NCBI GenBank assembly: GCA_964016885.1
Contig: OZ024763.1
Span: 5,766,001-5,830,000 of the forward strand
Length of the DNA: 64,000 bases
Direction of reading: 5' to 3'
DNA from: Eledone cirrhosa
Taxonomy: Eukaryota
Each line of letters starts with the position of its first letter. The stretch's first letter is position 1. Positions 10,643 through 61,030 of the stretch are shown here, one piece after another. A program made the position numbers and the translations under genes. The notes beneath the pieces were generated by a model. That model did no database searches, was not told the DNA's origin, and saw only the letters and a list, made by a program, of their open reading frames with translations.

Positions 10643-10780
10643 ATACTCTTACTGGTTTCAGTCATGGTGGTAGTAGTAGTAGTAGTAGTAGCAGCAGCAA
10701 CAGTAGTAGTAGTAGTAGTTGTAGTAGTAGTAGTAGCAGCAGCAACAGTAGTAGTAATAGTAGTAGTAGTAACAACTTAC

Positions 10781-11765: not shown

Positions 11766-11902
11766 CTCAAGAACCATTGAATTAACCTCTTTAGAAGAAT
11801 ATATTTGTTTAGCAACGGCAAGAATGGTGCTGGTTTTCCCTGTCCCAGGAGGGCCATAGAACAGCAAGTGGGGCAGACGATCCTCGTTCACAAATTTCTT
11901 AA
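11766..11902 (-). CDS. RFC5: RFC5 exon 3 (Walker A, PHLLFYGPPGTGKTST)
   Basis: 137 nt, tttcag/gtgagt; AAA+ P-loop visible in ORF 11733..11939. Confidence 0.97.
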
Positions 11903-13119
11903 CTGAAATAATAATAATAATGATTTCTAGTATAAGCACAAGGCCAGTAATTTGGTGGAAGGCGAAAGTCGATTAAATCGACCCCCAGTTCGTTACTGGT
12001 GCTTTATTTTATCGACCCCGTAAGGATGAAAGGCAAAGTTAATCTCGGCGGGATTTGAACCCAGAACGTAAAGGGCCATAACTCTATGCTGCAAAGCATG
12101 ACGTCTGACACTCTCAAGAAGCTTAACATTTTCATATTTCTAACAGGTTTATAATACAAGATTATATCAGCAGCTTCCACCAGTAAGCGAAGTGATAAGC
12201 CAGAGGAGAATGAAAGTCGCAGGTAACCGGTTTCGATGAGAAGATAGCAAGTAATCTTGCTGTGTGGGTACCCTCGGATGAATATAGAAATACAGTGGTA
12301 GAAGGACAAGAAATTAAATTCACCCCGTCCCACCACCACCACCCCCACCCCATCCACACCACCCCGTTCTATGTAAAGTTATGTTGGTGCCGCGCCATCG
12401 AGGCCGAAACAAATGAGATCGTGTAGGTGTCACGACAAAAAAACACACAGTCCACGCTGTAATGTGGCCGTGTAGGTAACACGGTAAAAACCTCCCAGAC
12501 CCACACTGTAAATGTGGTTGGTGTTAGGAAGGGCATCCAACTGTAGAAAACCTGCCAGACAGTCCTATGCGAGCAAGACAATCACTCTTGCCTCAAGTGG
12601 GACTACCCCCGTCCAAACCCATGCAAGCGTGGAACACGGACGTTAAACGTTGATGATGATGATGATGAACCTGCTGGAAGGTACTAGAATGGACAGTATA
12701 GGAGAGCTGACAACACTGATGGTGATGATGGCTAGAGAACTGTGGATGGCAGGTGTAAAGACAGATTGGTGACACGGCAGTTGGCATAGATAGATAGATA
12801 GATAGCTTCCAATTGTTCCACAATGCTGATGGTTGATAAAGACCTTTGCAGGGCAGGTGTAAAGATTGATGGGTGACCCTGGGTATTGGCATAGATAGAT
12901 AGCTTCCACTAAAATACTGATGATGGAAGGAGAGCTTTGGGGGTCAGGTGTAAAGATAGATCGGATATATATATAGATGAAAAAAATAATGTTATCTCTG
13001 ATCGAGACAAAGCAAGAGTCTATTTGAATACATATAAAAATGAGAAAACTCATCGTTAGAACAGCCATTAAAACAGCTAGATGTTGTCAAAGACAATTAT
13101 GGGCAAAAATGCCTCAGAG

Positions 13120-16985: not shown

Positions 16986-17666
16986 GAAAATTATTTTAGT
17001 TTATTTTTTATCTGTGTGTGTTGTGTTGTGGTTGGTGTTGTTGTGGTGTGGTGTGTTGTTGGGGGTGGTTTCTAGCTAATTGCTTTTTGGATTCTTTTTA
17101 CAAAAAAAAAAAAAAAAAAAGAGAAACAACACGACACACCTCTCCTCCTTTTACAACCTCCGGGGCCTCCTTTTTATATCTTATTTTATTGTATCCAGTT
17201 TGGGGCAGGAGGTGGCCACCCGACCAAACCAAACATGACTTATATGACACACAGGCTTTGAACTGATCGTATATATATTATACATACACATATATATATG
17301 TATATATATGTGTATATATATGTATCTATATATATGATTTAGCCACACATACACACACATATATATATATATACATATATATATTTATATATATATATAT
17401 ATATATATGTGTGTATATAATATATATATATATGACAACACAACACACATATCTACATATATTTATATATATATGACACAACACAACATATATTCATATA
17501 TATCTACATATATTTATATATATATGTAAAATATATGATATATATATAAGACACAGCGCAACACAATATATATATCTATCTATATATATATATATATATC
17601 TACCAGTGGAGATCAGATACTGTGAGACTTGTAATGGCATGTTGAAGCTGGGAGAGAAAGAAGACA

Positions 17667-17828
17667 ATGTCTTGTAAATCTACAGAGGAGGGGTCGGTCG
17701 AACACGCCATTCAGACGTGTAGTACCGTTCAAAGTATGATAGATTTTACAGCTAAACATTTGTACGGCCTTCGTACACAGTGTGCTCCCAATGAACAAAT
17801 TACACAGAAGGAAATACGTGATACTGAG
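17667..17828 (+). CDS. KSR: KSR coding exon 1, CC-SAM/CA1 (MSCKSTEEGS...GLRTQCAPNEQITQKEIRDTE)
   Basis: VQSMID-x7-GLRTQC-x6-TQKEIR matches the KSR1/2 coiled-coil N-terminus; donor GAG|gtaaga, phase 0. Confidence 0.92.
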
Positions 17829-18561
17829 GTAAGAGAATCAAAACATATTATATACTATATACACCACATCTTATCATAAACATACTATACCACCGATCAT
17901 ATCATATCATATATATATATATATACATACATACTATATCATATCATATCATAAACATACTACTCCACATCAATTCAGATACTACATAATATCACATCAT
18001 ATCATATATCAGATCACATCATATAAACATACTACACCACATCATATCATATATACACACACACTACACTACACTACATCTTAAACCATACCACACACAT
18101 CATATACACACACTTCACTACACCACATCTTAAACATACTACACCACATCATATCATGTACACATACTACACTACACCACATCTTAAAGATACTACACAC
18201 ATACTACTTACTACACATCACATCATATATCATATACACATACTATATACCCTACATCATATCGTATATACTACACCACATCACCTCATAACATATACTA
18301 CACTACACCACATCATGTATACACACACTCCACCTCATCATATATACACACACTACACCAAACCACATCATACACACTACATCACATCTTACTCGCCACA
18401 CCACATATATTTATGTATATATCATGTCGTACACTACACTATATCTTACTACACCACATATATTTATGTATATATATATATATATATACGTGTGTATATA
18501 CCATACTACACAACTCAACTATATATACATATCACGCACCAAACATAACGCACCACACACA

Positions 18562-22497: not shown

Positions 22498-22646
22498 TGT
22501 GTGTATATATATATATTTAAAAGTTAAACAAGGTTCAATGAATACATCAAAGAATGAGTTTTACAATAGATTGGAAGCACTCAACAGAAAAAGGTTTTCC
22601 AGAGTTATTAATATTAATTCAAAATATTAAACAAAATAGATATTCT

Positions 22647-22713
22647 TATTTTATCTGATGAGGACGTACTGTTGAACTTAACTCAGTACCTCTGAAATAT
22701 GTATAATAAAATA
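22647..22713 (+). ncRNA. Minimal type I hammerhead ribozyme-like motif
   Basis: TATTTTAT-CTGATGA-GGACGTACTG..CAGTACCTCT-GAAA-TATGTA-TA-ATAAAATA. Confidence 0.7.
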
Positions 22714-22753
22714 TAATTGATCACAAGAATATCTATTTTGTTAATATTTTGAA

Positions 22754-22801
<48 letters not shown>

Positions 22802-23192
22802 ACCCTGTAATTTTCGTTCTATCGAGAGGCTTAACACAAAACATTTTTAAGACGTCAATTACAAAGCTATGGTTGTGTTGTTGTTGTTGTTGTTGTTTAA
22901 TCCCAGGTCAACCTTCGCCTAGCCTCTCTATGATAGTCTAACCTTTCCTTAACTTTACTAAAGACGGTTGGTGATAAATTTGGCTGCTATTTCTAGCAAG
23001 TAATGCTGCCACATTGAGTCTTCCCCTACCCCTGGACATATTTTTGTCTCCTGTTGTTCTTTGTCTCTGCTCCACCCCCTCCTTTGTTCTTTGGTTGTGT
23101 ACCGTGGATATATATATATATAGAGAGAGAGAGGAAAAAGTATGACCCCGACGGCAGAGCTCAAGCCGTTTCGAGGGCTATTTCTGGACTGT

Positions 23193-23233
<41 letters not shown>

Positions 23234-23839
23234 ATATATATGTTATAACGAATCGGGATCCCGATTGCTGAGCTCTTGACGTTTCAACAGCTAGTTCCAG
23301 AGAAGTCTTGAACTAACTGCTAAAAGGGCAACAGCTCAGCCGTCTGGGTCCCGGCTCTTTACAATATAACCATACTCTACTACCCCAAGTATCCAGTACT
23401 CTGTTGAGTAATGGTCTAACCAGTTTCAAACTGAATCTATCCTGAGATATATATATATATATATATATATAACGAAGGAAATGTGGTAAGGAACCAGGTG
23501 GACCATAACGCACCAAAGTACTCAATACTTAGGGTAGTAGAGTGGGTAATAGGAACAAGTAGGACCTACTCGTTCCTATATATATATATATATATATATA
23601 TAACGAAGGAAATGTGGTAAGGAACCAGGTGGACCATAACGCACCAAAGTACTCAATACTTAGGGTAGTAGAATTAGCCGTCGAAACGGCTTGAGCTCAG
23701 CCGTCGGGGTCTTACTTGTTCCTATATATATATATATATATATATATTTCTATATCTATCTATGCTTCTGCCTCCCTCTTTCCAGCTATCTATCTGCCTA
23801 TATACCTACCTCTGTATCTCTCAATTTCCCACTCTCTCC

Positions 23840-23880
<41 letters not shown>

Positions 23881-25249
23881 ACGAAGTTATATCCGTCGAA
23901 ACGGCTTGAGCTCTGCCGTCGGGGTCATACCTTTTCCTATATCTATCTATATATATATTTATATATCTCAATGCCTCACTACCTTTCTACTTCACACTAT
24001 ATATACCTACCTCTCACTCTCTCTCTCTCTATATATATATATGTATCTCTCCTCCTAATAAAGGGTCACATTGTGCTATGAATTATGAACCCTATGACCC
24101 CTACCTCTTCTTTCCTGACATGAACTAGGTGAGGAGGTCACAGTTGTTTGTCCCTATTGTTTGAAGCTACCTTCAGGGAAACTCAACACCTCTCTCTCTC
24201 TCTCTCACACACAATGATCCTCACACTCTGTCCCTACCCCCCCCCTCTTGTCTCTTACTCTCTCTCTCTCTCTCACACAACACACATTGCCACCCCCACC
24301 TTGTCATCTCTGCAATGTATGACTGGCTACCATGTTACAACCCTTTCATTACCAGTGAAACTGTGTGTGTCCTTGTTGTTCAAAATCATGTAAATAATCA
24401 AAGATTTTAATATAATACACACAATATTCATTATAGAAGAAAAATCTGCCTCTAGCTGAGCCTGGAGGCTCATCAGGTCAGTTTACCCTCCGCCCCCTGG
24501 ACAGTCCATTGCAGGGTTAACGCCCCAGTTATTGCTGGTACTCATTTTCAGCTGAGTATTATTGGTGTAACATGAAATGAAGTATTTTGCTCAAGAACAC
24601 AACACACAACCCAGTCCAGGAATTGAACCTGCAACATTATCATGGATTGGGAGGGTGGTGGATTGGCAGTATCGGTGGAGGGTCGGCTGCCATGTTAGGG
24701 TGGTGGATTGGCAGTATCGGTGGAGGGTCGGACGCCATGCTTTCCAGCATAGTTACGTCCCTTTACGATCTGAGTTCAAATCCCGCTGAGGTTGACTTTG
24801 CCTTTCATCCTTATGGGGTCGATAAAATAAAGTACCAGTAATGCACTGGGTAATTGCTGGCCTTGTGCCTAAAGTAGAAACAATTATCATTGTAAGCACA
24901 CTTACCAGTAAGCCACTTACTGCCATTATAAAATGGTATCTACTATTATAAAAGTGTATTTAGTATTTATCGACATTTGCATTACCATCATCATCATCAT
25001 TTTCTTACAATATTCATCATCATCATCATCACTGGTTAATGTCCATTTTTCCCCTGCTGGCATGGGTTAGACGAGTTGTCCCATTGTGATACAAGCCACA
25101 AGCTAGATTAGATGACCGTGTCTTACTCATACAGAACTGTGTCTGGTTTGGTTTCTACAGCTGGATGCTCTTCCTAACCCCAACCCCATTTACAATGTGT
25201 ACTGGGTGCTTTTTATCATGACCACTTTATAGTGTAAACTGGGTGTTTA

Positions 25250-33457: not shown

Positions 33458-34338
33458 TGGCAACAATAATAACGATGATGACTTCATTTATTGGCCACAA
33501 GGGCTGACATATAGGGGTCAATGAAAAGACAGGGACAATGGGGGGGGTGGGGGTTACAATAAAATTGACTGGAAATACACAATAACAAAACCAATTTAGC
33601 AATGAAAAAATAAAAAAAATATAATATATATAAATATAACAAAATAAATCCCCCAATAGGGGGGTGAACCACCAATTCTGAACACCCGACACCTCAAGTT
33701 CAAATCCTGCTGAAGTTAGCTTTGCCTTTCACCCTTACGGGGGTCGATAAAATAAGGTACCAGTAACACACTGGGGTAGATTTAATCGACTTTCTCTCTT
33801 CCCCCAAAATTGTTGGCCTTGTGTCTAAATCAGAAACATAAAACAATGATGATGATGTTTCTGATTTAGGTACAAGGCCAACAATTTTGGGGGAAGAGAA
33901 AGTTGATTAAATCTACCCCAGTGTGTTACTCGTACTTTATTTATTGACCCCTGTAAGTATGAAAGGCAAAGCTAACCTCGGCTGAATTTGAACTGAGAAC
34001 ATAAAGGGCTGTAACTCTATGCCGCTAAGTATATTGTCCAACGCTCTACCGATTACTGCCAATCCACTGCCCTTTTATATTGATTTCTAATTTAGGCACA
34101 AAGCCAATAAATTTGGGGCAAGGGCAAAGTTGAACAAGTCAACTCCAGTATGTAACTGGTACTATATTTTATCAACCATGGAAGGAGGAAAGGTAAAACA
34201 AACTTCGGTGGGATTTGAACTCCGAACATTAAGGGCTGTAACTACAGTAGCAATCAAAATAAGGGAACAATAAATTATCTTTTCATTATTTATTTTATTT
34301 GACAAAATTTTCCCTTTAGAATTAGGATATTTGTAGTA

Positions 34339-36241: not shown

Positions 36242-36361
36242 ATGCTTACAGCACCTAGGTTTCCCAAGCGGTCACTCATCTAAATACTAACTAGGCTGGA
36301 TGTTGCTTAACTTCAGTGATTGGACAAGAACCGGTGTTTTCAACGTGATATGGCCGTAAAC
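36242..36361 (-). rRNA. 5S rRNA: Dispersed 5S rRNA copy, probably a pseudogene
   Basis: GTTTACGGCCATATCACGTTGAAAACACCGG...GAAGTTAAGC...TTAGTA...GTGACCGCTTGGGAA...GTGCTGTAAGC; several CpG-type transitions; only TTT at the 3' end. Confidence 0.9.
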
Positions 36362-45656: not shown

Positions 45657-45716
45657 ATATCAGTCTCCGATGTGGGGTGACATTGTATATATATGTATAT
45701 ATATATATATATATAT

Positions 45717-46000
45717 ACAATGATATTAAATAAATGGAAACTATATTTATAAAACCATATTTATTCTATCATATATATTTCAAGGGTAAAAAAATTTTAT
45801 CATCAGATAAAATTTAATCTGATGAAAGCGTACCAAAGATTTTTGGTACCCTTGCAATATATATAATAGAATAAATATGGTTTTATAAATATAGTTTCTA
45901 TTTATTTAATATCATTGAATATTTACTCCAGAAATCTGTCGAGTGCTCTGAATCAGTTATAAACATTTATATTTGTTGGATTTCCAACAAATTGAATATC
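45717..46000. mobile_element. Fold-back element, decayed hammerhead pair
   Basis: Inverted arms homologous to the 49.5 and 60.6 kb elements; CTGATGA 45819, GAAA mutated to GCAA at 45854. Confidence 0.7.
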
Positions 46001-46292
46001 CCTTCTACATGGGATTTGCACCTAGAAAGTTCCCCTCTGAGGCACAAGCCTGGGTAAGGTTTGTTAATGAAGACCAGCAGTCACCCATGCATACCAGTTT
46101 CCGATGTGGGGTGACTGAAGACAATGGCCAATACAGGCATGTCGCAACTCATTTCTACAGCTGAGTAAATTGGAGAAACCTGTAATAAAGTGTCTTGTTC
46201 AAGGACACAATACATCACCCGGTCCGAGAATCGAACTCACAAACTTTCAATTGCAAGCCCAACGCTCTAACCACTAAGCCATGCTGTGTGTG

Positions 46293-46327
<35 letters not shown>

Positions 46328-46478
46328 ACAATCCATGGAAAAGGGGATATAAAAACGCTGATGATGATGATATATTTGTATATGTATATGACAGTGCCCC
46401 AGCATGGCCTCAGCCTGTTGGCAGGAACACATAATAGAGTAATATAAATATATATATATTCTTTCTTTCTAATTTCAG

Positions 46479-46610
46479 AGCAAGTTAATCAAGCTGTTTA
46501 GCCAGCAGTTAGTAATTAAGGCCGAACTAGCTAACGACCAGCGTCTTGCTGAGTTTCCCAAGATTGAGAAATGGCTCAATATATTTGGGATCAATGAACA
46601 AGCAATCTCT
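46479..46610 (+). CDS. KSR: KSR exon 2 (SKLIKLFSQQLVIKAELANDQRLAEFPKIEKWLNIFGINEQAIS)
   Basis: 132 nt, tttcag/gtaagt; SKLxKxFSxQL and FPxxxxW of KSR CC-SAM; not in ORF track. Confidence 0.92.
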
Positions 46611-47179
46611 GTAAGTTAACCTTTTATATTTATCTAGAAACCTTTGTTAAGTTATGTTCCAAACGCCCCTGCTTCTATGATACAAAACTGTTTTAAAGTG
46701 TTTATATTTATCTGGAAACCTTTAAGTTATGTTCCAAACACCAGCTTAAACTACCCCTGGTTCTATGATACAAAGCTGTTAATATATATCTAGAAACCTT
46801 CCTTTGTAATTTTATGTAAGAATCCTTAAGTTATGTTCCAAACCCCCCTGCTTCCATCATGCAAAACTCTTTATTTTAAATTTATCTAGAACCCTTTGTT
46901 AAGTTATATTCCAAACACCAGCTTAATAATGAGAAAATTAGCTATATTACTAAATCCTGCCAAATATGGTAATAAAAGGGCTAAAGTGTTTATATTTATC
47001 TAAAAACCTTCCTTTGTAATTTTATGAAAGAACCTTTATGTTCCAAACACACCTGTAATACAAAACTTGTAATTTTAAAGTGTTTGTTTAGAAACCTTCC
47101 ATCATAATTATGTGTAAGAATCTTTAAGTTATGTTACAAACACCATCTTAATAATGAGAAAGACATTATAAAATCCCTT

Positions 47180-47575
47180 CAAGTGCAGTTGAGTTCCTTC
47201 TCCTTTATGGATGTGAGTTATGGACACTGACAAAAACACTCGAAAAGAGGATTAAGGATACATTTATCCAGGTGCTGAAAAAGGTCCAGAACATATCCTG
47301 GAGAATATACATAGCAAAGAAATCACTCTGTGGCTCACACCTTCACCTTTCTGCCATCACAAGGCGTAAGAGGCTCGCATTAGCTGGACATGTGAAATGT
47401 CACAATGAACCTGCTGGCAGAGCTCCTTTCTGGAAACCTGATATGTGCAGAGGAGACGGGAGACCAACCATCACACTGAAGGATGTTCTTGAAGATGGAC
47501 ACTGGGTTGGAGGCAGGGGAACTTCAGACGGCAATGCTGAACAGGGTGAGCTGGAGGAGGAACAGGTAACTGATG
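47180..47575 (+). mobile_element. RTE-type LINE 3' fragment in KSR intron 2
   Basis: VESFLLYGCELWTLTK...RKRLALAGHV..GRP motifs. Confidence 0.75.
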
Positions 47576-47910
47576 TATAAAAGAAGAATATATCATTCAT
47601 TTCATTTCATTTTCGTCCGCTTTTTCCCTGCTTGCAAGGGTGGGACGGGAACTGATTCTGGCTTGATTTCTACAGCCGGATGCCCTTCCTAACACCAACC
47701 TCATTTACAGTGAGTGCTGGGTGCTTTTTTGCCGTGGCACCTCCACGCCCACTTTGCAGTGGAATGATAGGGACCCCAGTCCCTATCATCTCATTTCTAC
47801 AGCTGAGTAGACTGGAGCAATGCGAAATAAAGTGTCTTGCTCAAGGAAACAACAATATATATATATATATATATAGTGTGTGTTATTAATGTTTTGTTGT
47901 TGTGTTTCAG

Positions 47911-48055
47911 GTGATTGTAAATAAAGGGATTCTCTTAACATCCCTGTTGAAGATGAATGAGGAACAGGTGCATTCTCTCTTCCGTGATAACAATGCTGAG
48001 AAGGAAGCTATCCAGGAACTTACAACGGCCTTAAAACATTTGAATGCTTGGACAG
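47911..48055 (+). CDS. KSR: KSR exon 3, SAM part (VIVNKGILLTSLLKMNEEQV...LTTALKHLNAWT)
   Basis: 145 nt, tttcag/gtgagg; LLxMxxEQV motif. Confidence 0.9.
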
Positions 48056-48063
48056 GTGAGGAT

Positions 48064-48149
<86 letters not shown>

Positions 48150-48277
48150 CACACTCACTCACTCACTCACTCACTCACTCACTCACACACACACACACAC
48201 ACACACTCACTCACTCACTCACTCACTCACTCACTCACTCACTCACTCACTCACTCACTCACTCACTCACTCACTCA

Positions 48278-48353
<76 letters not shown>

Positions 48354-48605
48354 AATATACATCATCATCATAATTGTTTAACGTCTATCTTCCACGCTAG
48401 CATGGGTTTAGACGGTATATATATGTATGTATGTACGTCTCATGTACGTCAATACTCAACTTTTTGGCCATTTCTCCGAGGGTTATTAACCCCACTATCA
48501 GGCTAAATAATTTCTTTAATTTCTTTAGTCAAAATACGGCGATAGCTGACATTTCTAATAATTTCAAACCCACTCGCTGTTTCGAAAATATTCTTACTTG
48601 ATATA

Positions 48606-48638
<33 letters not shown>

Positions 48639-49436
48639 CATCATCACATATATACACACACCAATCCAATGTGTTCGCTTTTTGCATGAAGATGTGTTCA
48701 TGGACACGGCACATAAGGAAAATTCGCATAATTCAAGTTGCGTATTGCTGATAAGTTAAAAAATTAAAAACCACATGCATTATAATAATAATCATAATAA
48801 TAATAATAATTAAATTATTGTGTACAGTGCTCAGGTGCACTACAACTCATCAAAGCTGCATGTATAGTACATAGAATAATGTACAAATGTCAGGAAAATG
48901 TGTTATTTGCGCAAAGTGAATAATTAATAACATTTTTTCAAGAGGTCTTAAAGTGAATTCACGTATTTCAAGTTCGCGTAAAATGTGAACAGACTTTATG
49001 TGTGTATATATATATATATATATATGGTTTTTATTTTCATTTTGCATGATTTCTTACCTGAAAATATGTGTTGAAACAGAGAGCCATGCTGCTAATAAAA
49101 AACACGCGCACATGTTGGGTTTCACTTGAATTTATTATTACAATTTCCCAGTCAGTTAGTTTAATAACTGGATGGTTGCCTAGTTGAAACAGAACAAAGG
49201 AGAGATTCCAAGTGACAACAAAGTAACTGAGGAGGTCACAGAATGTGTGACGAAAGAGCTTTGAGAATCGACAACTAAACAACCGTCCGGTTATTAAACT
49301 AACCAACTGGGAAGTTATAATAATAAATTAAAGTGAAGCCCAACAGATGTGTGTGGTTTTTATTGCCAGCATGGCCTTCCTAATGTATAACAATATATAT
49401 ATATATATATATAACAATATATATATATATATATAC

Positions 49437-49887
49437 ATGGAAAGTTATATTTAAAATTGTTGGGTTACAACTAGTAAATATTTATAACTGATATAAAAGC
49501 ACTCGACAAATATTTGGAGTATATTTACAATATTAAATAAATGGAAACTATATTTATAAAACCATATTTATTTCATTATATATATTTCGGGGATATCATA
49601 TTAACAATATGCTACGCCTTCCTCAGACAAAATACAATATAAACAGTTTTATAGATAAATAGATTTGACATACCGTTCAACATTTGAAGAGGTTAAGCTG
49701 GCAGCTTAACCTCTTCAAATGCAAGTCGGTGTTATAACGGTATGTCGAATCTATTTATCTATAAAACTGTTTATATTGTATTTTGTCTGAGGAAGGCATA
49801 GCATATTGTTAATATGATATCCCCGAAATATATATAATGAAATAAATATGGTTTTATAAATATAGTTTCCATTTATTTAATATTGTA
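49437..49887. mobile_element. Fold-back element with hammerheads at 49569-49634 (-) and 49779-49844 (+)
   Basis: Near-perfect inverted arms between (TA)n tracts; TATTTTGT-CTGAGGA-stem II-GAAA-TATATA-TA-ATGAAATA. Confidence 0.75.
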
Positions 49888-49932
49888 TATATATATATAT
49901 ATATGTATTTTTTTTTTCTTTCCTATTTGCAG

Positions 49933-50638
49933 ACAAGCAGATCAAAGGAGATTCCTGTGATGAAAACGATGTGGAACTGCATTGGTCTCGATACACACCG
50001 TCTCAGTCGACAAACGTCAGTAGTGGCGGTGGTGGTGGTAGCATGAGTAGCAGCATCACCACCGCCACCACCACAGAGGGAGGGCCCGATGGTGAAGGGA
50101 ATAGTAATGGGGGTGAGGGTACTGCGGGAGGTGCTGTCCATGAGGGCGGCAGTGGTGGTGGTGGTGGTGGTGTTGGCAGCAGTAGTAGTAGTACCACTGG
50201 TGGTGGTGGAGGTGGTGGTGGTGCTGGTGGCAATGTTGGTGGTGGTGGTGGTGGTGGTGTTGTTGGTGGTGTTAGTGGTGGTGTAGGTAGCAGTGGTGGT
50301 GGTGGTGGTGGCGTGTTTGCCGACACCGGGTCCCCGAAATACTTCCCCTGTCCCTCGACTTCGTCTCTTCCGTCGGAAAACTTTCAGCCACTGCACATCC
50401 CCACGTCCCCACAAAGCACCCCTTCGTCTCCGGTGCCGCGTAACCCAAAGGAGCGACATCGGGGCACCCCTCCTCCGACGCCGCCCCTAGTTAGAGCCAA
50501 GCCCATGGGCAGCAAATACCCAAGTACACCTCCCCCCAAGAAAAAGATCCAATTATTCCCAGACGCTTCATCGCTGAAGAAGAGTCGTTCATGTGAATCT
50601 CAGTTGGCCAGTCGTGTCACCAACATCGACCCAGTCCG
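49933..50638 (+). CDS. KSR: KSR exon 4: poly-Gly tract, Pro-rich CA2 (TPPPTPP, PSTPPPKKK), KSRSCESQL
   Basis: 706 nt open, ttgcag/gtgagt, phases 1/2 fit neighbours; matches KSR PxTPPP and RSKSHESQL-type motif. Confidence 0.92.
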
Positions 50639-50653
50639 GTGAGTACAGCTCTT

Positions 50654-51010
50654 CTGGGTGGTTTTATAGGGTACAGGCAGCTGGGTGGTTTTATAGGGTA
50701 CAGGCAGCTGGGTGGTTTTATAGGGTACAGGCAGCTGGGTGGTTTTATAGGGTACAGGCAGCTGGGTGGTTTTATAGGGTACAGGCAGCTGGGTGGTTTT
50801 ATAGGGTACAGGCAGCTGGGTGGTTTTATAGGGTACAGGCAGCTGGGTGGTTTTATAGGGTACAGGCAGCTGGGTGGTTTTATAGGGTACAGGCAGCTGG
50901 GTGGTTTTATAGGGTACAGGCAGCTGGGTGGTTTTATAGGGTACAGGCAGCTGGGTGGTTTTATAGGGTACAGGCAGCTGGGTGGTTTTATAGGGTACAG
51001 GCAGCTGGGT
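50654..51010. repeat. 27-bp minisatellite, 13 copies
   Basis: CTGGGTGGTTTTATAGGGTACAGGCAG. Confidence 0.95.
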
Positions 51011-51269
51011 ACATTTGTTAGGTTTATATGGTACCAGACAGGGATTCAGTCTAACTACGAGGGTTGGATGACTATAAAGGAGTGATGCTGGAGCTGTGAA
51101 ATCTTGCATACCAATAATTTTTCACTCTTCTTAGTATTAACGGAATTGTTTTTTTCTAGAGACTGTTGAAAAATAAACATCATTTGGTCATTCCATGAGA
51201 GTATCTTGGTCATCCTACAAACTTCTCAGTTGATCCTCGTATGTTGGTTTTATAAATTACAGGTATACT

Positions 51270-51620
51270 TAGAGATATGGTAACTAAGGAGTTAATTAGA
51301 GTCATGGTAATGAAGGAGTTAATTAAAGATATGGTAACTAAGGTGTTAATTAGAGATATGGTAATGAAGGTGTTAATTAGAGATATGGTAACGAAGGTGT
51401 TAATTAAAGATATGGTAACTAAGGTGTTAATTGGAGATGTGGTAACGAAGGAGTTAGAGATATGATAACAAAGGTGTTAATTTGAGATATGGTAACGAAG
51501 GTGTTAATTTGAGATATGGTAACGAAGGTGTTAATTAGAGATATGGTAATGAAGGAGTTAGAGATATGGTAACGAAGGTGTTAATTAATTAGAGATATGA
51601 TAACGAAGATATTAATTAAT
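51270..51620. repeat. 27-bp minisatellite related to a MITE terminus
   Basis: AGAGATATGGTAACGAAGGTGTTAATT. Confidence 0.88.
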
Positions 51621-51647
51621 TACTGTTTTTATTGCTATTATTTCCAG

Positions 51648-51835
51648 ACAGAAGAAGAAACCTGGCAACAACAAGCTAGGAGGCAGTTTTGAAATCTTAA
51701 TAAATCGCCGTCCTTCAACAGAAGGTTCTGAAGCTGGGTATAACAGCCAAGGTCCCTCACCTGTGCTGTCCCCTGCTATGAGATCTCCTCCCTATAAAGC
51801 TGATTCAAGTATTTTGAAAGAATATTACAAAACAA
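51648..51835 (+). CDS. KSR: KSR exon 5 (QKKKPGNNKLGGSFEILINRRPSTEG...EYYKT)
   Basis: 188 nt, ttccag/gtgagt, in frame with exon 4; weaker homology; downstream exons not seen in window. Confidence 0.8.
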
Positions 51836-52364
51836 GTGAGTTAAGCTGTCTTTATTATTCTCTACTACGTGTTCCATCTGACAGACTAAGGCCATGCTGG
51901 GGCACCGCCATTATCTTCTTCTTCGCCCACTTATTCCTGAGAGGGGGGGGGGCAGAGTCCTTAAACACTCCTTCCAGTGAGTCCTGTCAGAAGCAACCGT
52001 CTCCAACTGATCCAGCTGGATCCCCCAAGCAAGACCAATCAAGCTCATGGATGTTATCCAACCATCTTGCTCACAGTCTACCCCTGGGTCTCCTATCTAT
52101 TGGTTTTGCCCGAAAACCGCCATTATTACTTTATTACTAATTACCAGAAAACAAACATGCTTTTTATTTTGGGTCCACATATGTATATTATATTTTATCA
52201 TTTCATCATCATTTCATTTTACGTCCACTTTTCCCTGCTTGCAAGGGTGGGACGGGAACTGATTTGGCTTGATTTCTACAGCTGGATGCCCTTCCTAACA
52301 CCAACCTCATTTACAGTGAGGACTGGGTGCTTTTTGGCAGTGGAATGATAGGGACCCTAGTCCC

Positions 52365-52512
52365 TATCATCTCATTTCTACAGCTGAGTAAACTGGAGCA
52401 ATGTGAAATAAAGTGTCTTGCTCAAGGAAACAACACATCACCCGGTCTGAGAATTGAACTCACAACCTTTCGATTGCAAGGCCAATGCTCTAACCACTAA
52501 GCCATGTGCTTC
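52365..52512 (-). mobile_element. Second tRNA-headed SINE family
   Basis: TGGCTTAGTGGTTAG / GAGTTCAATTC head then CCTTGAGCAAGACACTT body; copies near 0.7, 15.7, 24.5, 37.1, 43.0, 46.1, 47.8, 54.2 kb. Confidence 0.8.
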
Positions 52513-53041
52513 CATTTTATCTTACATATAAACATTTGTGAAGGTCTGAGACTCTCAGAGAACTCCTCAATGGTCCACATCTATATTATATATATAGTAA
52601 AATATCGGTGGATGTGAAAAAAGTAAAAGGAAAACTCTGCTCAACCATGTACGAGAGCTGATATATAATATATAATTTATTTATATTCATACACGAAACA
52701 AAAAGCCCAATTTTGACTATCATCCCAGATTGTAAGAGGGATCAAATTTGTGACCTATATATAATTCTGCCCCTGCTCACTTTCTATCTTGCTATTTCTT
52801 CGTTAATTTCTCATTCTGATAAAGGACTACTGTATGAAACATCAAGACACCTCCTAGTATATTATGCATGAAACTAATATATATCATTTATACATCTGAT
52901 GTAAAACCTTTCTTTGGTATATTTTTTATTTGTATAGATACTCTTCCAGTTCCTAAATCACCCATAACACCAGACCAGAATATTATGGTACCTTCGAACC
53001 ACAGGTAAATACTACATTTATTGCTATATATATCTATTGAA

Positions 53042-53098
<57 letters not shown>

Positions 53099-53503
53099 GC
53101 ACACACAACAATAATACACTTTCAAACCTCAGGTAAATACTACATTTATTGCTATATATATCTGTTGAATATATTGAATATATATATATATCTATTGAAT
53201 ATATGTGTATATATATATATATATACACACACACACGCACACACAATAATAATACACTTTCAAGCCACAGGTAAATAGTACATTTATTGCTATATATATC
53301 TGTTGAATATATTGAATATATATATATATCTATTGAATATATACCGTCCCACCCTTGCAAGCAGGGAAAAGCGGACTTAAAATGATGATGATGATGATAT
53401 GTATATATATATATACACACACGCACACACAATAATAATACACTTTCAAACCATAGGTAAATACTACATTTATTGATATATATATCTGTTGAATATATGT
53501 ATG

Positions 53504-53551
<48 letters not shown>

Positions 53552-53715
53552 GTAATAATAATAAATTTGAAGACTAAAATCCAAAGAGGGCTCGATAAGG
53601 ATAAATATATATCAAATATATAAGAACCGTAGAGCAAATATTTATTAAAATAACAGATTAAAGTTTAAGCAAAGAATCGATTCTTTGCTTAAACTTTAAT
53701 CTGTTATTTTAATAA

Positions 53716-53748
<33 letters not shown>

Positions 53749-54359
53749 CTCACACATACATACACACATGACGATGAGACACCTTCAAACCACATGTAAA
53801 AATTACATTTATTTTCATATCTATTGAATATATATATATATGTATACATACACACACATATATATATATCCACACACACATATATATATCATCATCACCG
53901 TGTTACGTCCATTCTTCGATGCTAGTATGGGTTAGACTAGTTGTCTTGTTGTGGGCAATGCCAGGTCAGAGACCGTGTCTTATATATACACACATACCAT
54001 ATAAGATAGGTCCATTTGAGCTACACGCTGTTATATCGTCAGGAGTTTGTCTACTTTTTGGGGGTTTTTTGGCGATTTCTTCTGCATATTTCATTCCATT
54101 GTTTGGAAAATGAAACTGTCCTGACACCTGGAAAACATTTCTGTCACAGATGCAACAGTAAAGTACTTTTTCTCAATTTTGACATTTTGGCACCAGTGAC
54201 GTCGCAACTCATTTCTACAGCTGAATAAACTGAAGCAACGTGAAATAAAATGTCTTGCTCAAGAACACAATGCAAAGCCCAGTCCGAGAATCGAACACAC
54301 AACCTCACAATTGCAAGCTCAATGCTGTAAACGCTAAGCCATGCGCCTTCACAGACGAT

Positions 54360-56790
54360 ATACGGTCAACGAAAGTAGGAAACAAATTAAAAAGAATAAC
54401 AAAAAACCAAGAGGAATTCTTTAAGCACAAATTGCGGAAATCTTTGTAGATGGTGGATTAACTCTTATCCAACCATCACATTCAATTGGGATATGCAATG
54501 TCCGCAAGGACATAGATGAACACTCCCTACAGACATTTTAACAATAGAACCTCAACAATAGACCACTTGTCGTCTTCTCTCCCAATCTCTCCGTTTATAG
54601 AAAACTGGGAATTAAGCCACAATATGGATCTAGGGTCGGATCATACCACCAACACTTTTAATATTGCAATTCCTATAACCAACAAAAACCTGAGCTATTG
54701 TCAAACACACCAAAGAAAATATCAATTTCACAGAACTGCCTGGATTAAGTTTACTATTTATTTAGAAGCAGAAGTATCACCCCACAACAAATATTACAAT
54801 GTCCAATCAGCTAAAGAACTATAACAAATCTACAAATATTTCTCAACAAAGTACAGGATACAATCACTGAGAAAGTACCTTTTACATATTCTGTTCCAAA
54901 TAGAAATAACAGCAATAAGGTATGGTGGGGTGCAGGACTAAAACAACTAAGAAGTGAAATGACTCAGTCATTACAAAAAGGGAAATACGATTCTACAGAT
55001 TACAATTATGAAATATATAAAGGACTAAGAAAAAGTTTAACAGGCAAATAAAACAAGCCAAAAGTGATTTCTGGCAAAGCTAACCTAGAGTCCATGGGTG
55101 ATATATGCTCCATATATCACCCATTTAGTAGTATAATTAAATTCCAACACCATCCAGATATATGGAGATTAACTCATATCTCAGTAATACCAAAACCAAA
55201 TAAGGATAACTACCACTCTACCAGATCATACCATCTAATAGCTTTACTAAGCAATCTTTCTAAAATGCTAGAAAAAATGTTTAGGCAATAGATTATCTTA
55301 CTTAGGAGAGACAATGAACATTTTTCCCAAATCCGAGTTTGGATTTCCACTGAGAACTGTGTACATTCATCAGAAACAAAAAAAGCAAAAATATTTACCT
55401 TTTAAAGGGTCTCCCACAGGGATCGCCAGTCTCACTCATTCTCTTTCTATATTACACAACAAATTTGTTTACATCTCTAAATAAAATTGTAGAAGTATCA
55501 GGTTTTGCAGATATCAACTTACATACTTCTAGTATCATCAACAACAACAAAACCAAATTATTCACAGCCTTATCAACTGCAACTGAATGGTCAAAAGAAA
55601 ATGGCCAACAATTTCATCCCTCTAAAAAACACAACTGGTTCAATTCCATAATCCTGAACCCATCAATTATCAATGTGATGAAAAATACTTGATGAACCAA
55701 CTATTGATACCACAAAAATCCATCAAGATACTAGGCATTTGGTTACGATCTGACTTGAAATATGAAACTCATCTCAAACACACACTGAAAAAAATGACTT
55801 CAACAAGGCATACAATTAAAGTAATCTCAAAGAAATTCCACTGCCTAACATACAACCACTTCAGACTGTATAATAGGGGAGTCATCAACACTCAATTGTT
55901 GTATGGAAGCTGGGTTTGTGGACACACAGATACTAGCTATTTTCAAGCTATTGAGAGATTCCGTACCCAAATTGGTAAAACCATATTGAAATGTCTAAAA
56001 TCTACTCCCAGGATAGCAATTTTTCATGAAGCTGGGTTAACCCCAACTTATTTGTTGATAGAAGAGTCCAGGAAATGCAAATTGCTAACTGCTCAGTTTA
56101 AATGCAAAAGAAAACAGCATGATACTTGGCTTCCTCCATGAGTAGAATAATTAAAATCATTTAAAATAATGATTAAAAACACAAAAGAGGAAGCAAAAGA
56201 ACTCCATAACACCATGACAAAGTCAATCTCTTTTAACAGCTGGCTCTGCTACACAGATGGGGGACATTAAGACAAGGGAGTGGGTTGTGGAGCTACTTGG
56301 TCTTTCAAATATAATTATAAGGATATGAACTTCAGATTACATCAGGAATACATTATATTTCATGCAGAATGGTGGGAAATTACATTATCTACAGATTCAG
56401 CTATGGAATTGCCCTGGAAATATGGTTTTCTATTTACTGATAGTCTATCAAACCTAGAACTGCTTCAGTCAAGAAAAAGGGGTTGAGTTAGAGATATTGA
56501 GAACGCTCTACTAAAAATAGATAACTACCTCTCAGAAATTGATAAAGAAATAACATTTATTTGGATACTGTGCCATACAGATATTAGAGGAAATAGGAAA
56601 ACAGACGAATTGAGGGAGCACAAAGGGAAATAATAGATATCGACTTCATCCCAAATCTTTCACAGGTAAAATCATTTAGCAAACATATAATTAGTCAAGG
56701 GTGGGAAACATTTTGGGAAGATTCCCGAGATAAGCTCACAAATTTCAATACCCCACTTTCTCAACCAGTTTTGACAACATTCAAAACTCA
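54360..56790 (+). mobile_element. Decayed I/Nimb-like LINE (endonuclease, RT, RNase H)
   Basis: TIDH/GSDH; IPKPNKD..SYHLIALLSNLSKMLEK; PQGSP; KILG; RNase H YTDG/IFHAE/FTDSLS/RGN; many stops. Confidence 0.85.
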
Positions 56791-57064
56791 TATGGTCCAT
56801 TTTAGCTTGGTTTATTTTTTATGGCTAGATGCCCTTCCTGGGGTCAACCACTTCAGTGTGTACTGGGTGCCTTTTATAATGGCACCAGCTCTACCACCTT
56901 ACAGGATGGACTGCATGTTTTGTATTGTGGCCTCAGCACTACCACCTTACAGGGTAGACTAGGTGCTTTTCATCATGGCCCCAGCACTACCATCTTACAG
57001 GGTGGACTGGGAGCTTTTATATATGCCGTAAATATGTCCCCATTGATGAGTATGAAACCAATCA

Positions 57065-59465
57065 TGTGGTTATGGGGATGATGATGGTTGTTAAAGTTAT
57101 GGTGGTTATAAGAATGTTGGCGATAGTGATGATGGTGGTGGTAGTGGTGAGGACAATGATGGTGGTGTGGTAATGATAGTGATGATGGTGGTGTGGTAAT
57201 GATGGTAATGGTGATAGTGATATTGGTGGTATTGGTGTTGATGGTGATATTGGTGGTATTGGTGTTAATGGTGATGGTGGTATTGGTGGTGATGGTGGTA
57301 TTGGTGGTATTGATGGTGATATTGGTGGTATTGGTGATAGTGATATTGGTGGTGTTGATGGTGATATTGGTGGTATTGGTGGTGATGGTGATATTGGTGG
57401 TATTGGTGATAGTGATATTGGTGGTGTTGATGGTGATATTGGTGGTATTGGTGGTATTGGTGGTAGTGATATTGGTGTTAATGGTGATTGTGGTATTGGT
57501 GGTGATATTGGTGGTATTGGTGATAGTGATATTGGTGGTATTGGTGGTGATGGTGATATTGGTGGTATTGATGGTGATATTGGTGTTATTGGTGATTGTG
57601 GTATTGGTGGTGATGGTGGTATTGGTGGTATTGGTGATAGTGATATTGGTGGTATTGGTGATAGTGATATTGGTGGTATTGATGGTATTGGTGGTATTGG
57701 TGATAGTGATATTGGTGGTGTTGGTGTTGATGGTGATATTGGTGGTATTGATGGTATTGGTGGTGATGGTGATATTGGTGTTAATGGTGATTGTGGTATT
57801 GGTGGTATTGGTGGTGATGGTGATATTGATGGTGATATTGGTGGTATTGGTGATAGTGATATTGGTGGTGATGGTGATATTGGTATTGGTGGTATTGGGG
57901 ATGGTGGTATTGGTGGTGTTGGTGATGGTGATAGTATTGGTGGTGATGGTGATGGTGGTATTGGTGATGGTATTGGAGATGGTGGTGTTGGTGATGGTGG
58001 TATTGGTGGTATTGGGGATGGTGGTATTGGTGGTGTTGGTGATGGTGATAGTATTGGTGGTGATGGTGGTATTGGTGGTGTTGGTGATGGTATTGGAGAT
58101 GGTGGTGTTGGTGATGGTGGTATTGGTGGTGTTGGTGATGGTATTGAGATGGTGGTGTTGGTGATGGTGGTATTGGTGGTGTTGGTGATGGTATTGAGAT
58201 GCTGCTATAAATCCAGTTGGGACTGTAGACCCAATCACTGTTAGTTGCCCACTCACAACAATTCATAATATTGGGATGACGTCAAACAGCATTGATCTAT
58301 GGTAGTGGTGGTGGTGGTGATGGTGGTGGTGGTGGTGATAGTGTGGAGTGGTGGTGGAGGTGATAGTGTGGAGTGGTGGAGGTGATGTGTAGTGGTGGTG
58401 ATGGTGTGGAGTAGTGGTGGTGGAGGTGATAGTGTGGAGTGGTGGAGGTGATGTGTAGTGGTGGTGGTGATAGTGTGGAGTGGTGGTGGTGGAGGTGATA
58501 GTGTGGAGTGGTGGTGGTGGAGGTGATAGTGTGGAGTGGTGGTGGTGGTGGTGATAGTGTGGAGTGGTGGTGGAGGTGATAGTGTGGAGTGGTGGAGGTG
58601 ATGTGTAGTGGTGGTGGTGATAGTGTGGAGTGGTGGTGGAGGTGATAGTGTGGAGTGGTGGAGGTGATGTGTAGTGGTGGTGGTGATAGTGTGGAGTGGT
58701 GGTGGTGGTGATAGTGTGGAGTGGTGGTGGTGGAGGTGATAGTGTGGAGTGGTGGAGGTGATGTGTAGTGGTGGTGGTGATAGTGTGGAGTGGTGGTGGA
58801 GGTGATAGTGTGGAGTGGTGGAGGTGATGTGTAGTGGTGGTGGTGATAGTGTGGAGTGGTGGTGGAGGTGATAGTGTGGAGTGGTGGTGGTGATGTGTAG
58901 TGGTGATGGTGGTGATAGTGTGGAGTGGTGGTGGAGGTGATAGTGTGGAGTGGTGGAGGTGATGTGTAGTGGTGATGGTGGTGATAGTGTGGAGTAGTGG
59001 TGGTGGTGTGGTGGAGGTGGTGGTGGTGTGGCAGTGTTGTTGGTGTTACTGATGTTCTTAGTGGTGGTGGTGGTGGTGTGTAATGTTATTAATGGTGGTG
59101 CTTGGTGGTGTGTAGTGTTATTAGTGGTGGTGGTGGTGTGTAGTGTTATTAGTGCTGGTGGTGGTGGTGGTGGTGTGTAGTGTTATTAGTGCTGGTGGTG
59201 GTGGTGGTGGTGTGTAGTGTTATTAGTGCTGCTGGTGGTGGTGGTGGTGTGTAGTGTTGTTATTAGTGGTGGTGGTGGTGGTGTGTAGTGTTATTAGTGC
59301 TGGTGGTGGTGGTGGTGTGTAGTGTTATTAGTGCTGGTGGTGGTGGTGGTGTGTAGTGTTATTAGTGCTGGTGCTGGTGGTGACAGTGGTGCTAATATGT
59401 AATGGTGGTAGTGTTGGTGGTGGTGTGTAACATTATAGTAGTAGTAGTAGTAGTAGTAGTAGTAA
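57065..59465. repeat. GGT/GAT/ATT-rich low-complexity and minisatellite block
   Basis: Trinucleotide-derived arrays split by a short unique island at ~58200-58300. Confidence 0.92.
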
Positions 59466-59662
59466 TGGGGATTGGGTGGTGGTGGTCAGTTCTGTCTGAT
59501 GTCATCAACCACTGATCTCCCTCCCCTCCCGCCGTCTTATGACGTCAAAGCCATGACACGTGACAATCGATTTGAGGCGTGGTGGTGGTGGGGGAAGGAG
59601 AGGGGTGCCAAGGAAAGTACGTAATAACAGAAAAGTTTTCATTAGTTTTAACGGAGTTAACT

Positions 59663-60145
59663 ATGTGTGTGTATATATATATGTACTTGTGTGTGTATAT
59701 ATATATGTACTTGTGTGTATATATATATATGTACTTGTGTGTGTATATATATGTACTTGTGTGTGTATATATATATGTACTTGTGTGTGTATATATATAT
59801 GTACTTGTGTGTGTATATATATATGTACTTGTGTGTGTATATATATATGTACTTGTGTGTGTATATATATATGTACTTGTGTGTGTATATATATATGTAC
59901 TTGTGTGTATATATATATATGTACTTGTGTGTATATATATGTACTTGTGTGTGTATATATATATGTACTTGTGTGTGTATATATATATGTACTTGTGTGT
60001 GTATATATATATGTACTTGTGTGTGTATATATATATGTACTTGTGTGTGTATATATATATGTACTTGTGTGTATATATATATATGTACTTGTGTGTGTAT
60101 ATATATATGTACTTGTGTGTATATATATAAATGTACTTGTGTGTA
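59663..60145. repeat. ~24-bp GTACTT(GT)n(AT)n minisatellite
   Basis: Direct inspection. Confidence 0.9.
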
Positions 60146-60273
60146 TATATATATATATATATATATGTACTTATATATATATATAAATATATATGTACTT
60201 ATATATATATATAAATGTATATGTACTTATATATATATGTACTTATACTTATATATATACTTATATATGTACT

Positions 60274-60334
<61 letters not shown>

Positions 60335-60466
60335 GTACTTATATATATATGTACTTATATATATATATATATATATATGTACTTTATATATATATACTTA
60401 TCATCATCATCATTATCATCATCATCATCATTTTACGTCCGCTTTTCCCTGCTTGCAAGGGTTGTA

Positions 60467-60540
<74 letters not shown>

Positions 60541-60674
60541 GAGGTTATATTTAATTTGTTGGGATTCAACAAGCTTATTAAAAAATTTTATAACTGATAT
60601 AAAGCACTCAACAGTTTAGTGGAGTAAATACACAATATATTAATAAATGTAAACTATATTTATAAAACCATATT

Positions 60675-60740
60675 TATTTTATTATATATATTTCAAGGGC
60701 AACCAAGGCAAATTATGGTGCGCTTTCATCAGATAAAATA
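60675..60740 (-). ncRNA. Minimal type I hammerhead ribozyme, mirror copy
   Basis: Reverse complement of 60874-60939. Confidence 0.75.
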
Positions 60741-60873
60741 CAGATTTATTTTATAAATAAATATTGACATACCCGGATAAAAGACAACCTTAACGGTTGG
60801 CTATTCAGGAAGCTCCAACCATTAAGGTTGTCTTTTTCCGGGTATGTCAATATTTATTTATAAAACAAATCTG

Positions 60874-60939
60874 TATTTTATCTGATGAAAGCGCACCATA
60901 ATTTGCCTTGGTTGCCCTTGAAATATATATAATAAAATA
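60874..60939 (+). ncRNA. Minimal type I hammerhead ribozyme, intact core
   Basis: TATTTTAT-CTGATGA-AAGCGCACCA..TGGTTGCCCTT-GAAA-TATATA-TA-ATAAAATA; perfect 8-bp stem I. Confidence 0.75.
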
Positions 60940-60979
60940 AATATGGTTTTATAAATATAGTTTCCATTTATTAATATAT

Positions 60980-61030
<51 letters not shown>

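Follow-up and report, generated by a model that had tools for sequence, protein, structure and literature searches.

Penelope-like retrotransposons (Penelope-like elements, PLEs) are described as producing inverted, 5′-truncated copies with one-sided tails and a bias towards (TA)n targets (PMC8557442), and palindromes are described at the junctions of their head-to-head copies (PMC3846280). The origin of the inverted repeats and the one-sided tail is a matter on which PMC8557442 sees a need for mechanistic studies and for which PMC3846280 puts forward self-priming on an antisense template. The Poseidon element PAc of Anolis cleaves and extends both target strands, with a predicted dimer, and its reverse transcriptase (RT) initiates internally at a pair of sites delimiting the tail, near the junction of the terminal repeat (pLTR) and the open reading frame (ORF) (PMC11167929). 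About 2,000–9,000 minimal hammerheads per genome are quoted in PMC4209133, and Hydra-1_Obim, from Octopus bimaculoides, is listed in the supplement to PMC8557442. Here we analyze a stretch of 64,000 nucleotides from Eledone cirrhosa (the window: positions 5,766,001 to 5,830,000 of the forward strand of contig OZ024763.1, assembly GCA_964016885.1), in which four fold-back elements, E1 to E4, lie in what appear to be introns of a KSR gene. Judged by sequence, these four are head-to-head pLTR pieces of hammerhead-bearing PLEs.

Fold-back elements and their Penelope-like parents

The elements have the following parts (window coordinates, strand in parentheses):

45717–46008: E1, whole element; tail-less arm (−), tail-bearing arm (+), tail (+)
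45717–45811 (−): E1 tail-less arm, an inverted pLTR end; core at 45806, whose stem II has collapsed; outer side next to (TA)n
45812–45917 (+): E1 tail-bearing arm; core at 45819 with GCAA replacing GAAA, predicted inactive
45918–46008 (+): E1 tail; in the parents, the stretch from the pLTR end to the ORF leader
49437–49887: E2, whole element; tail (−), tail-bearing arm (−), apex, tail-less arm (+)
49437–49525 (−): E2 tail, adjoining (TA)n
49526–49700 (−): E2 tail-bearing arm; core at 49626; small deletion close to the apex
49701 (no strand): E2 apex, a single unpaired base, flip or flop among copies
49702–49887 (+): E2 tail-less arm, with its core at 49787 and a predicted cut after 49836
60538–60984: E3, whole element; tail (−), tail-bearing arm (−), junction, tail-less arm (+)
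60538–60629 (−): E3 tail, containing two hairpin loops, hypervariable between copies
60630–60800 (−): E3 tail-bearing arm; core at 60732
60801–60815 (no strand): E3 head-to-head junction, varying from copy to copy
60816–60984 (+): E3 tail-less arm, with its core at 60882 and a predicted cut after 60931; outer side next to (TA)n
22515–22760: E4, whole element (the "22.6-kb copy"), a more distant homologue of E1–E3
22515–22608 (−): E4 tail, from a second, diverged PLE family; in loci L095, L099, L100, L112 and L119 it occupies the position between pLTR and ORF leader
22611–22647 (−): E4 tail-bearing arm, truncated to ~37 bp, without ribozyme
22644–22760 (+): E4 tail-less arm; its hammerhead at 22655 has an intact core, is sense to KSR and is for the most part unmasked

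The inverted spans run from 45710 to 45925 in E1, 49520 to 49893 in E2 and 60630 to 60984 in E3, with self-complementarity of 83%, 92% and 96%, respectively; the folding of E3 has a z of −38 relative to chance, and each of E1–E4 has a one-sided tail of ~90 nt. An earlier note on this DNA had described E1–E3 as homologous elements, as they indeed are (pairwise identity of 73–87% in local matches). They do not form a family particular to KSR or standing alone, but are pLTR pieces of PLEs found genome-wide. The (TA)n tracts that it placed beside the elements are generally there, except that the E1 tail, reaching ~46008, has none on that side. A hammerhead core in each arm holds for E2 and E3 but fails for E1, whose sense core reads GCAA instead of GAAA and whose other arm has an unpairable stem II; E4 has the reported stem II (GGA/TCT) but only one core, within the loop between its 37-bp arms. 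Two further observations concern the surroundings of these elements: a 15-nt direct repeat at 45667 and 46101 brackets E1 together with ~90 nt of other sequence, and a fifth family member lies in KSR ~6 kb past the window end (L195:5527–6192), with two core-bearing arms whose cores are 366 nt apart.

Translation of flanking sequences revealed PLE ORFs adjoining E4-type copies. Loci L091 and L092 hold elements with an RT plus, at the C terminus, a GIY-YIG domain that end in the E4 arm (99% and 93% identity), the E4 tail-less arm being 99% identical to the 3′ end of the full-length L091. In L192 and L193, the E1 arm and tail, at 96%, stand directly before the leader of an RT/endonuclease (EN) ORF, and this parent family shares ~65% protein identity with the E4-type parent family. 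L214 carries the E3-type pLTR and tail on both sides of its ORF (88%), and E2-type ends are linked to ORF pieces in L208 (96%), L211 (89%) and L201 (88%). The E1, E3 and E4 types thus have ORF-bearing parents, and E2 has ORF-bearing relatives; the Penelope link that had been claimed, with an RT plus GIY-YIG parent to be sought, is borne out by the same arm and tail at 88–99% identity.

Ahead of the parental ORF the order is hammerhead, arm, tail, leader and ATG. Read by eye, this order is complete and uninterrupted in 5 of the 30 loci ascertained by their ORFs (L095, L099, L100, L112 and L119) and partial or absent in the rest; the repeat occurs both before and after the ORF in L091, L192 and L214. 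YRDD/YHDD and YIGAT/YVGST motifs are present in L092, L154, L211 and L214, and these same four have DKT (as SDKT) rather than DKG; DKT was not found in L093. A CxCX5C linker precedes the C-terminal EN in L154, L211, L214, L093 and L091, with the third cysteine replaced by F in L092. The position corresponding to RWK reads RWR in L091, L211 and L214, RWC in the mutated L154, and RWK only in L093, which has an unrelated pLTR; the end of the EN, inspected by eye, shows CxH in L092, L154, L211 and L214, and no CCHH was noticed there. Atlas look-alikes of the parents score 0.96–0.98, GIY-YIG, RVT_1 and HTH_animal clusters among them; searched by sequence against Pfam and PDB, the parent ORFs gave no significant match. 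L093 was considered as a parent of E2 and rejected: its ORF lies near an E2 copy, but it has a different direct repeat of its own. It holds a nearly intact PLE ORF of another family (L093:2254–5863; RWK, CxCX5C) with 296-bp direct repeats at 98%.

The hammerhead motif and its abundance

The cores are identified as type I hammerheads by their motif, from which cleavage is predicted. In the usual hammerhead numbering, each arm ribozyme consists of an 8-bp stem I, the CUGANGA box, stem II, GAAA, a 2-bp stem III and the cut site; stem III closes a palindromic 4-nt loop and stem I, as read by eye, is extended further past an internal loop. Of the 213 Rfam matches in the window, the 150 listed include no hammerhead family, nor do the 10 matches at E4, so the ribozyme identity rests on the core motif, the stems and their covariation. 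The stem II triplets AAG/CTT, AGG/CCC and GGA/TCT are as previously described, apart from E2, whose first "pair" is an A.C mismatch at a place that is A-U in its ORF-linked relatives. The reported C.C mismatch at position 4 of stem II is present in all four elements and in 130 of the 147 distinct hammerhead sequences collected, most of which are close relatives. The proposed covariation of stem II also finds support and extends to stem I: in an alignment of 18 hammerheads, hand-picked from the 147 together with window and parent copies (two from unrelated families), 93% of cells pair as against 35–52% in slid controls, and changes on both sides occur in 12 of 18 pairs (7/8 in stem II, 5/8 in stem I), a level reached by 0 of 500 shuffles; with the structure read from these same sequences and kinship uncorrected, this is to be taken as support and carries no p-value.

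Across the 3.0-Gb genome, a degenerate hammerhead pattern has 51,356 exact matches (25,813 + 25,543), with 0 for the reversed control, giving a density of at least one motif per 58 kb. Thus, four core-bearing elements in the window and another 6 kb downstream are unremarkable. The count is far above the 2,000–9,000 of PMC4209133, though the search methods differ.

Copies, targets and head-to-head pairs

First-look DNA searches yielded 4248 candidates for E1, 1462 for E2, 2241 for E3 and 1842 for E4. In the copy sets of E2 and E3, each comprising the best 30 of 40 scored among these candidates, (TA)4 occurs within 60 nt on both sides of 30/30 E2 and 28/30 E3 copies (58/60), against 197 of 1200 background windows (16%). 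Tails of the 30 top E2 copies diverge by 0.2%, and their apex base is G in 21, C in 7, duplicated in 1 and unparsed in 1; E2 apexes are nearly constant, and those of E3 show deletions of a few to ~30 nt. Four sequencing runs from one study, available as contigs, cover the E2 half-element deeply, with no piece spanning E2. We also noticed that in the E3 tail (60538–60629; L001–L030) two small hairpin loops are near-random at 3–4 nt and show short inversions, unlike the E3 arms, which differ by just 1.4% among copies; the equivalent tail loop varies in the E4 parents, and the bases beside the E2 apex vary in a mirrored fashion. Such hypervariable hairpin loops may be the mark of single-stranded hairpin intermediates.

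The arrangement of neighboring cores was surveyed in the first 100 of the 51,356 matches (contig C1, 0–14.6 Mb). There are 23 neighbors within 4 kb, where ~2.7 would be expected by chance: 18 are head-to-head (17 of them within a single family), 3 same-strand and 2 tail-to-tail, both of the latter cross-family. Every one of the 17 same-family head-to-head pairs has exactly one tail match. Their spacing is continuous from ~0.1 to 3.7 kb, with E1–E4 at the short end, and 6 of the 17 enclose ORF pieces; in these 6, three tails sit on the long arm and three on the short one. These pairs bear on the notion that the elements are miniature inverted-repeat transposable elements (MITEs) or foldback DNA transposons with TA target duplications and a hammerhead by accident. 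Long inverted repeats, high copy number and TA flanks would suit such an origin, but the tail lies outside one repeat in 17/17 pairs, the interior ranges from almost nothing to whole RT ORFs, and the parents contradict it, as the arms are the 3′ ends of RT-encoding elements and the partners encode an RT; we regard it as extremely improbable. Nevertheless, annotation pipelines could mistake the short hairpins for MITEs.

The two arms of a copy share variants. In the E3 set, 24 variants are mirrored between the arms (12 private to a copy) and in the E2 set likewise 24 (6 private), the maxima in 1000 shuffled arm pairings being 10 and 13, respectively. Similarly, an arm is closer to its partner than to non-partners in 14 of the 17 pairs, tied in 2 and worse in 1, and this includes pairs 1–3.7 kb apart. 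Thus, each insertion seems to rebuild both arms from a single template.

The lengths of the two arms vary independently. Among 24 E3 loci found by their tail alone, a sample biased to copies without clean (TA)n after the tail, both arms are full in 3, one is full and the other cut in 8, both are cut in 1, and an inverted arm is joined straight to a partial tail in 5; the remaining 7 loci have no mirror arm, are interrupted or consist of a tail only. The upstream limit of the arms is in part sharply placed: of 47 E4-family arms, 13 have their end 51–64 nt upstream of the core, including 4 that end precisely at the A of a CACT, none end at 65–80 nt, and 10 continue to a TATA box or beyond (the 24 shorter arm matches come mostly from diverged subfamilies, indels or deeper truncation). 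The E4-type TATA box starts 30–31 nt before this A. CACT is found at the matching place in the E1, E2 and E3 types, and its A is the starting point of arms in L198, L206, L051 and L135. Under the usual rules on initiator (Inr) and TATA spacing, CACT with TATA(−31) is a start-site-like motif. Hammerhead cleavage was considered as the origin of the arm ends and rejected, since arm starts do not pile up at the predicted cut site (5/158 of the E3 type fall in the +50 bin).

One way to obtain such shapes from the same PLE origin is for a single cDNA, or an antisense template, to fold at a small palindrome and prime itself, with later cruciform repair eroding the center and homogenizing the arms. 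For the PLEs of Adineta, self-priming has been proposed on the basis of palindromes found where copies are joined in inverted orientation (PMC3846280), and together with repair it accounts for the mirrored variants and for a central erosion that is greater in the more diverged set (E3 > E2). However, the second arm in many copies holds sequence that is missing from the first, in either direction, and a single-cDNA fold-back cannot supply what its first arm lacks; furthermore, the tail of the six ORF-bearing pairs is as often on the long arm as on the short one, and the parents have no long palindrome at the apex position. We consider this explanation unlikely.

A proposed twin-cDNA mechanism of insertion

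What has to be explained is the parentage of the elements, their copy number, the flanking (TA)n, the single tail of each pair, the variants common to both arms, the independent arm lengths and the continuous range of sizes. We propose that the head-to-head pairs probably arise from nicking of both strands of a (TA)n target and two primed cDNAs. The RT-endonuclease would nick both target strands and prime two cDNAs on opposite strands, one starting at the tail end and the other at the arm end, and the two would then be joined at their upstream ends to give the head-to-head pair. For the short fold-backs, priming would take place on the 5′ pLTR of the mRNA, and both cDNAs would run out at the transcription start (the A of CACT, 64–95 nt upstream of the core), which would set the apex; longer pairs would come from longer RNAs. 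Joining with small deletions or a mismatched apex would yield the flip/flop of E2. By eye, both arm and tail ends show TA-rich microhomology to the target.

A fuller version of this proposal, which we advance tentatively as an open contender, is that the fold-backs constitute a genome-wide record of PLE insertion, in which a dimeric RT-endonuclease primes on opposite strands of (TA)n at the tail-bounding sites near the 5′ end of a capped mRNA, with the products joined head-to-head. If so, inverted pLTRs and the one-sided tail would be explained without an antisense template, and short mirror-hammerhead hairpins would be the default product of PLE insertion; a 3-Gb genome would have been seeded with many thousands of near-perfect hairpins, some of them intronic, which could feed A-to-I editing.

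Several points weigh against the twin-cDNA proposal or narrow its base. Post-insertion cruciform repair or cDNA self-priming could likewise yield variants mirrored between the arms, the apex flip/flop and central deletions on one side only. Unmirrored changes outnumber mirrored ones (84 vs 24 in E3, 29 vs 24 in E2), recurring at 5 sites in E3 and 1 in E2, in 2–3 copies each, and the arms of L054 differ from each other at a haplotype site. The TATA box at −30/−31 belongs to the E4-type families only and not to the E1–E3 types, and the CACT cap is not universal, as the short arms of the long pairs in L201, L204, L205, L208 and L211 extend past it. The E2 and E3 sets, chosen by score, favor complete hairpins, and the sample of 100 matches covers only the first 14.6 Mb of one contig. 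Finally, pattern searches found no ORF downstream of the exact E2 or E3 tail: a pattern in which the E3 tail precedes non-TA sequence had 51 matches, and no ORF leader appeared in the 23 distinct downstream stretches read from the 30 loci returned, the gap in this pattern being shorter than the leader later seen in E1 parents; a tail-plus-leader pattern, as written applicable to E2 only, gave zero matches.

This last result, alongside the fixed A.C first pair of stem II in E2 and its youth and abundance (0.2% tail divergence, 1462 first-look candidates), could be read to mean that the short fold-backs, E2 above all, are non-autonomous masters resembling short interspersed elements (SINEs), whose apex or read-through RNA is mobilized in trans by the PLE protein, with the hairpin rebuilt each time. 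The internal promoter of D. virilis Penelope (PMC2377424), the sufficiency of pLTRs in trans (PMC3846280) and the existence of animal retrozymes as non-autonomous PLE derivatives (10.64898/2026.07.22.740005) would all suit such a cycle. However, E2-type ends occur at 88–96% on ORF-bearing insertions, and L207 has the same stem II on a longer 3′ untranslated region (UTR), so a longer source of E2 exists; in addition, the TATA box of the E4 types lies outside the short arms. We hold SINE-like masters to be quite doubtful, although the idea is partly compatible with the twin-cDNA explanation.

Masking of the ribozymes

The earlier note had proposed that fold-back masking keeps active ribozymes tolerated in introns, with A-to-I editing or unwinding as their regulated release. 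The geometry of masking is confirmed in folding predictions, where the hammerhead stems have a probability of 0.0 in the full E2 and E3 hairpins as against 0.4–0.9 in a single arm. The model could further draw on E2 being a 180-bp hairpin next to a putative splice acceptor, on the reported exclusion of tandem, dimer-competent retrozymes from Xenopus introns (10.64898/2026.07.22.740005), and on the stem I extension, which would make these hammerheads more complete than minimal ones. However, the part of the model in which masking enables persistence and ADAR or unwinding acts as a switch finds no support: E4 has an intact core that is sense to KSR and largely unmasked (predicted stem II probability of 0.6–0.96, stem I ~0.2), E1 has no intact ribozyme on either arm, and for 66 of the 100 cores sampled there is no mirror core of the same family within 4 kb (for 34 there is). 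Moreover, a single PLE hammerhead did not cleave in vitro (PMC4209133), the PAc ribozyme depended on the PLE protein and insertion could do without it (PMC11167929), and editing of the core, with its many A residues, would more likely be damaging. We therefore think such a switch very unlikely.

As mirror cores lie on opposite strands, a dimer is impossible within one transcript. The hammerhead is likely kept by selection in active parents, and in inserted copies, masked or not, it would likely be inactive without a tandem partner and the PLE protein. Masking is a by-product and not a demonstrated survival device, and the ribozymes in the fold-backs are likely passengers rather than a hidden switch. 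What gives these elements their value is a testable insertion mechanism and the abundance of ribozyme motifs; a masked intronic switch is no part of it.

The host gene and its surroundings

The host gene lies on the + strand and is identified as KSR by a Pfam match (PF20406, E = 6.8e-13) and by kinase-type exons 19–23 kb beyond the window end. Two exon frames fall in the window:

17646–17876 (+): KSR N-terminal helical hairpin exon frame, PF20406
49933–50498 (+): putative KSR exon, a Gly/Ser/Pro-rich open frame just 3′ of E2, with inferred limits

If the gene model suggested by these exons holds, E1–E4 are all intronic. The putative exon at 49933–50498 had no match in the Pfam search. The end of E2 is 45 nt from its putative splice acceptor (AG at 49931–49932), and between the E2 hairpin and the acceptor (49887–49933) there is just (TA)n and a pyrimidine tract. 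This makes E2 a candidate site of editing or altered splicing, offered only as a lead, and nothing special is shown for KSR itself.

Other repeats occupy the same region. Directly left of E2, a second fold-back (49083–49375; 104-nt arms, 84% complementary) surrounds a single hammerhead-like core at 49227 that has an extra base before stem II; it is probably from another PLE family, because a similar core in L085 sits downstream of RT/GIY-YIG frames with a CCHH-type motif. A cluster of short inverted and tandem repeats between (TA)n tracts (23108–23962) probably comprises the ends of a further PLE family, as the same repeat is found ahead of a PLE-type ORF start in L050. A 260-nt inverted repeat at 33715–33976 belongs to a common repeat family, and a 5S rRNA-like copy at 36243–36361 (−) scores above the Rfam gathering threshold. 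Upstream of KSR, on the − strand, exons at 8421–11972 have the look of a replication factor C subunit (a P-loop ATPase).

Comparison with known systems

Our literature search found nothing on these families, on a start-site cap for PLE fold-backs or on intronic ribozyme masking; most subscription papers and Repbase/Dfam were outside its scope, and the families may be catalogued there. Among described PLEs, the closest match is offered by the EN-bearing Hydra clade, with which the parents share the C-terminal GIY-YIG, DKT, the CxCX5C linker and an RW-type N-terminal motif, as well as a canonical hammerhead near the 3′ end, (TA)n insertion, the inverted truncated copy and the one-sided tail (PMC8557442). 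They differ in having RWR in most copies, as opposed to RWK, in their tail of ~90 nt where 30–40 bp is described for PLEs, and in their hammerhead, which is unlike the one listed for Hydra-1_Obim (PMC8557442). With a length of ~4.5–4.7 kb and a long AT-rich 3′ UTR, they also exceed the Hydra size described as generally <3 kb (PMC8557442); hence, although DKT, CxCX5C, (TA)n and the hammerhead fit that clade, we file the parents as Hydra-like.

The dual minimal hammerheads of the Schistosoma Cercyon PLE (PMC4209133) are similar in being two opposite-strand ribozymes ~100–700 bp apart, in the thousands of dispersed motifs tied to truncated PLEs, in covariation between families and in the palindromic loop 3. 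The hammerheads here are distinguished by a stem I of 8 bp plus extension, by the conserved C.C at stem II position 4, by the lack of an extra base before 10.1, and by a pair 10.1–11.1 that is often A-U, G.U or A.C and not G-C.

Poseidon PAc and the Penelope elements of D. virilis and Adineta share with our families the order of a hammerhead-bearing pLTR, a tail and the ORF start, the tail between two RT start sites, the AT-rich targets and the head-to-head inverted pLTRs (PMC11167929, PMC2377424, PMC3846280). In those elements, however, the ORF begins inside the hammerhead, whereas here its start follows the tail by ~90 nt. The sites at which PAc starts are non-homologous, in contrast to the TA-rich microhomology seen here at arm and tail ends (PMC11167929), and the promoter of D. 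virilis Penelope is TATA-less and internal, unlike the upstream TATA box of the E4-type parents (PMC2377424).

Animal non-LTR retrozymes are likewise short, non-coding derivatives of PLEs with type I hammerheads, but they are head-to-tail tandems able to form dimeric ribozymes and circles, whereas the head-to-head copies here are unable to do so in cis (10.64898/2026.07.22.740005). The arrangement here is not one of head-to-tail units as in retrozymes: 18 of the 23 close neighbors are head-to-head and 3 are same-strand, and the four window elements are inverted. Thus, inverted pLTRs, the one-sided tail, (TA)n targeting and opposite-strand hammerhead pairs are already known for PLEs, and what is new here is mechanistic, namely the shared arm variants, the independent truncation, the one tail per pair and the start-site-like arm stop; with tens of thousands of young insertions and identifiable parents, the E. 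cirrhosa genome makes the model of twin priming with a start-site cap testable.

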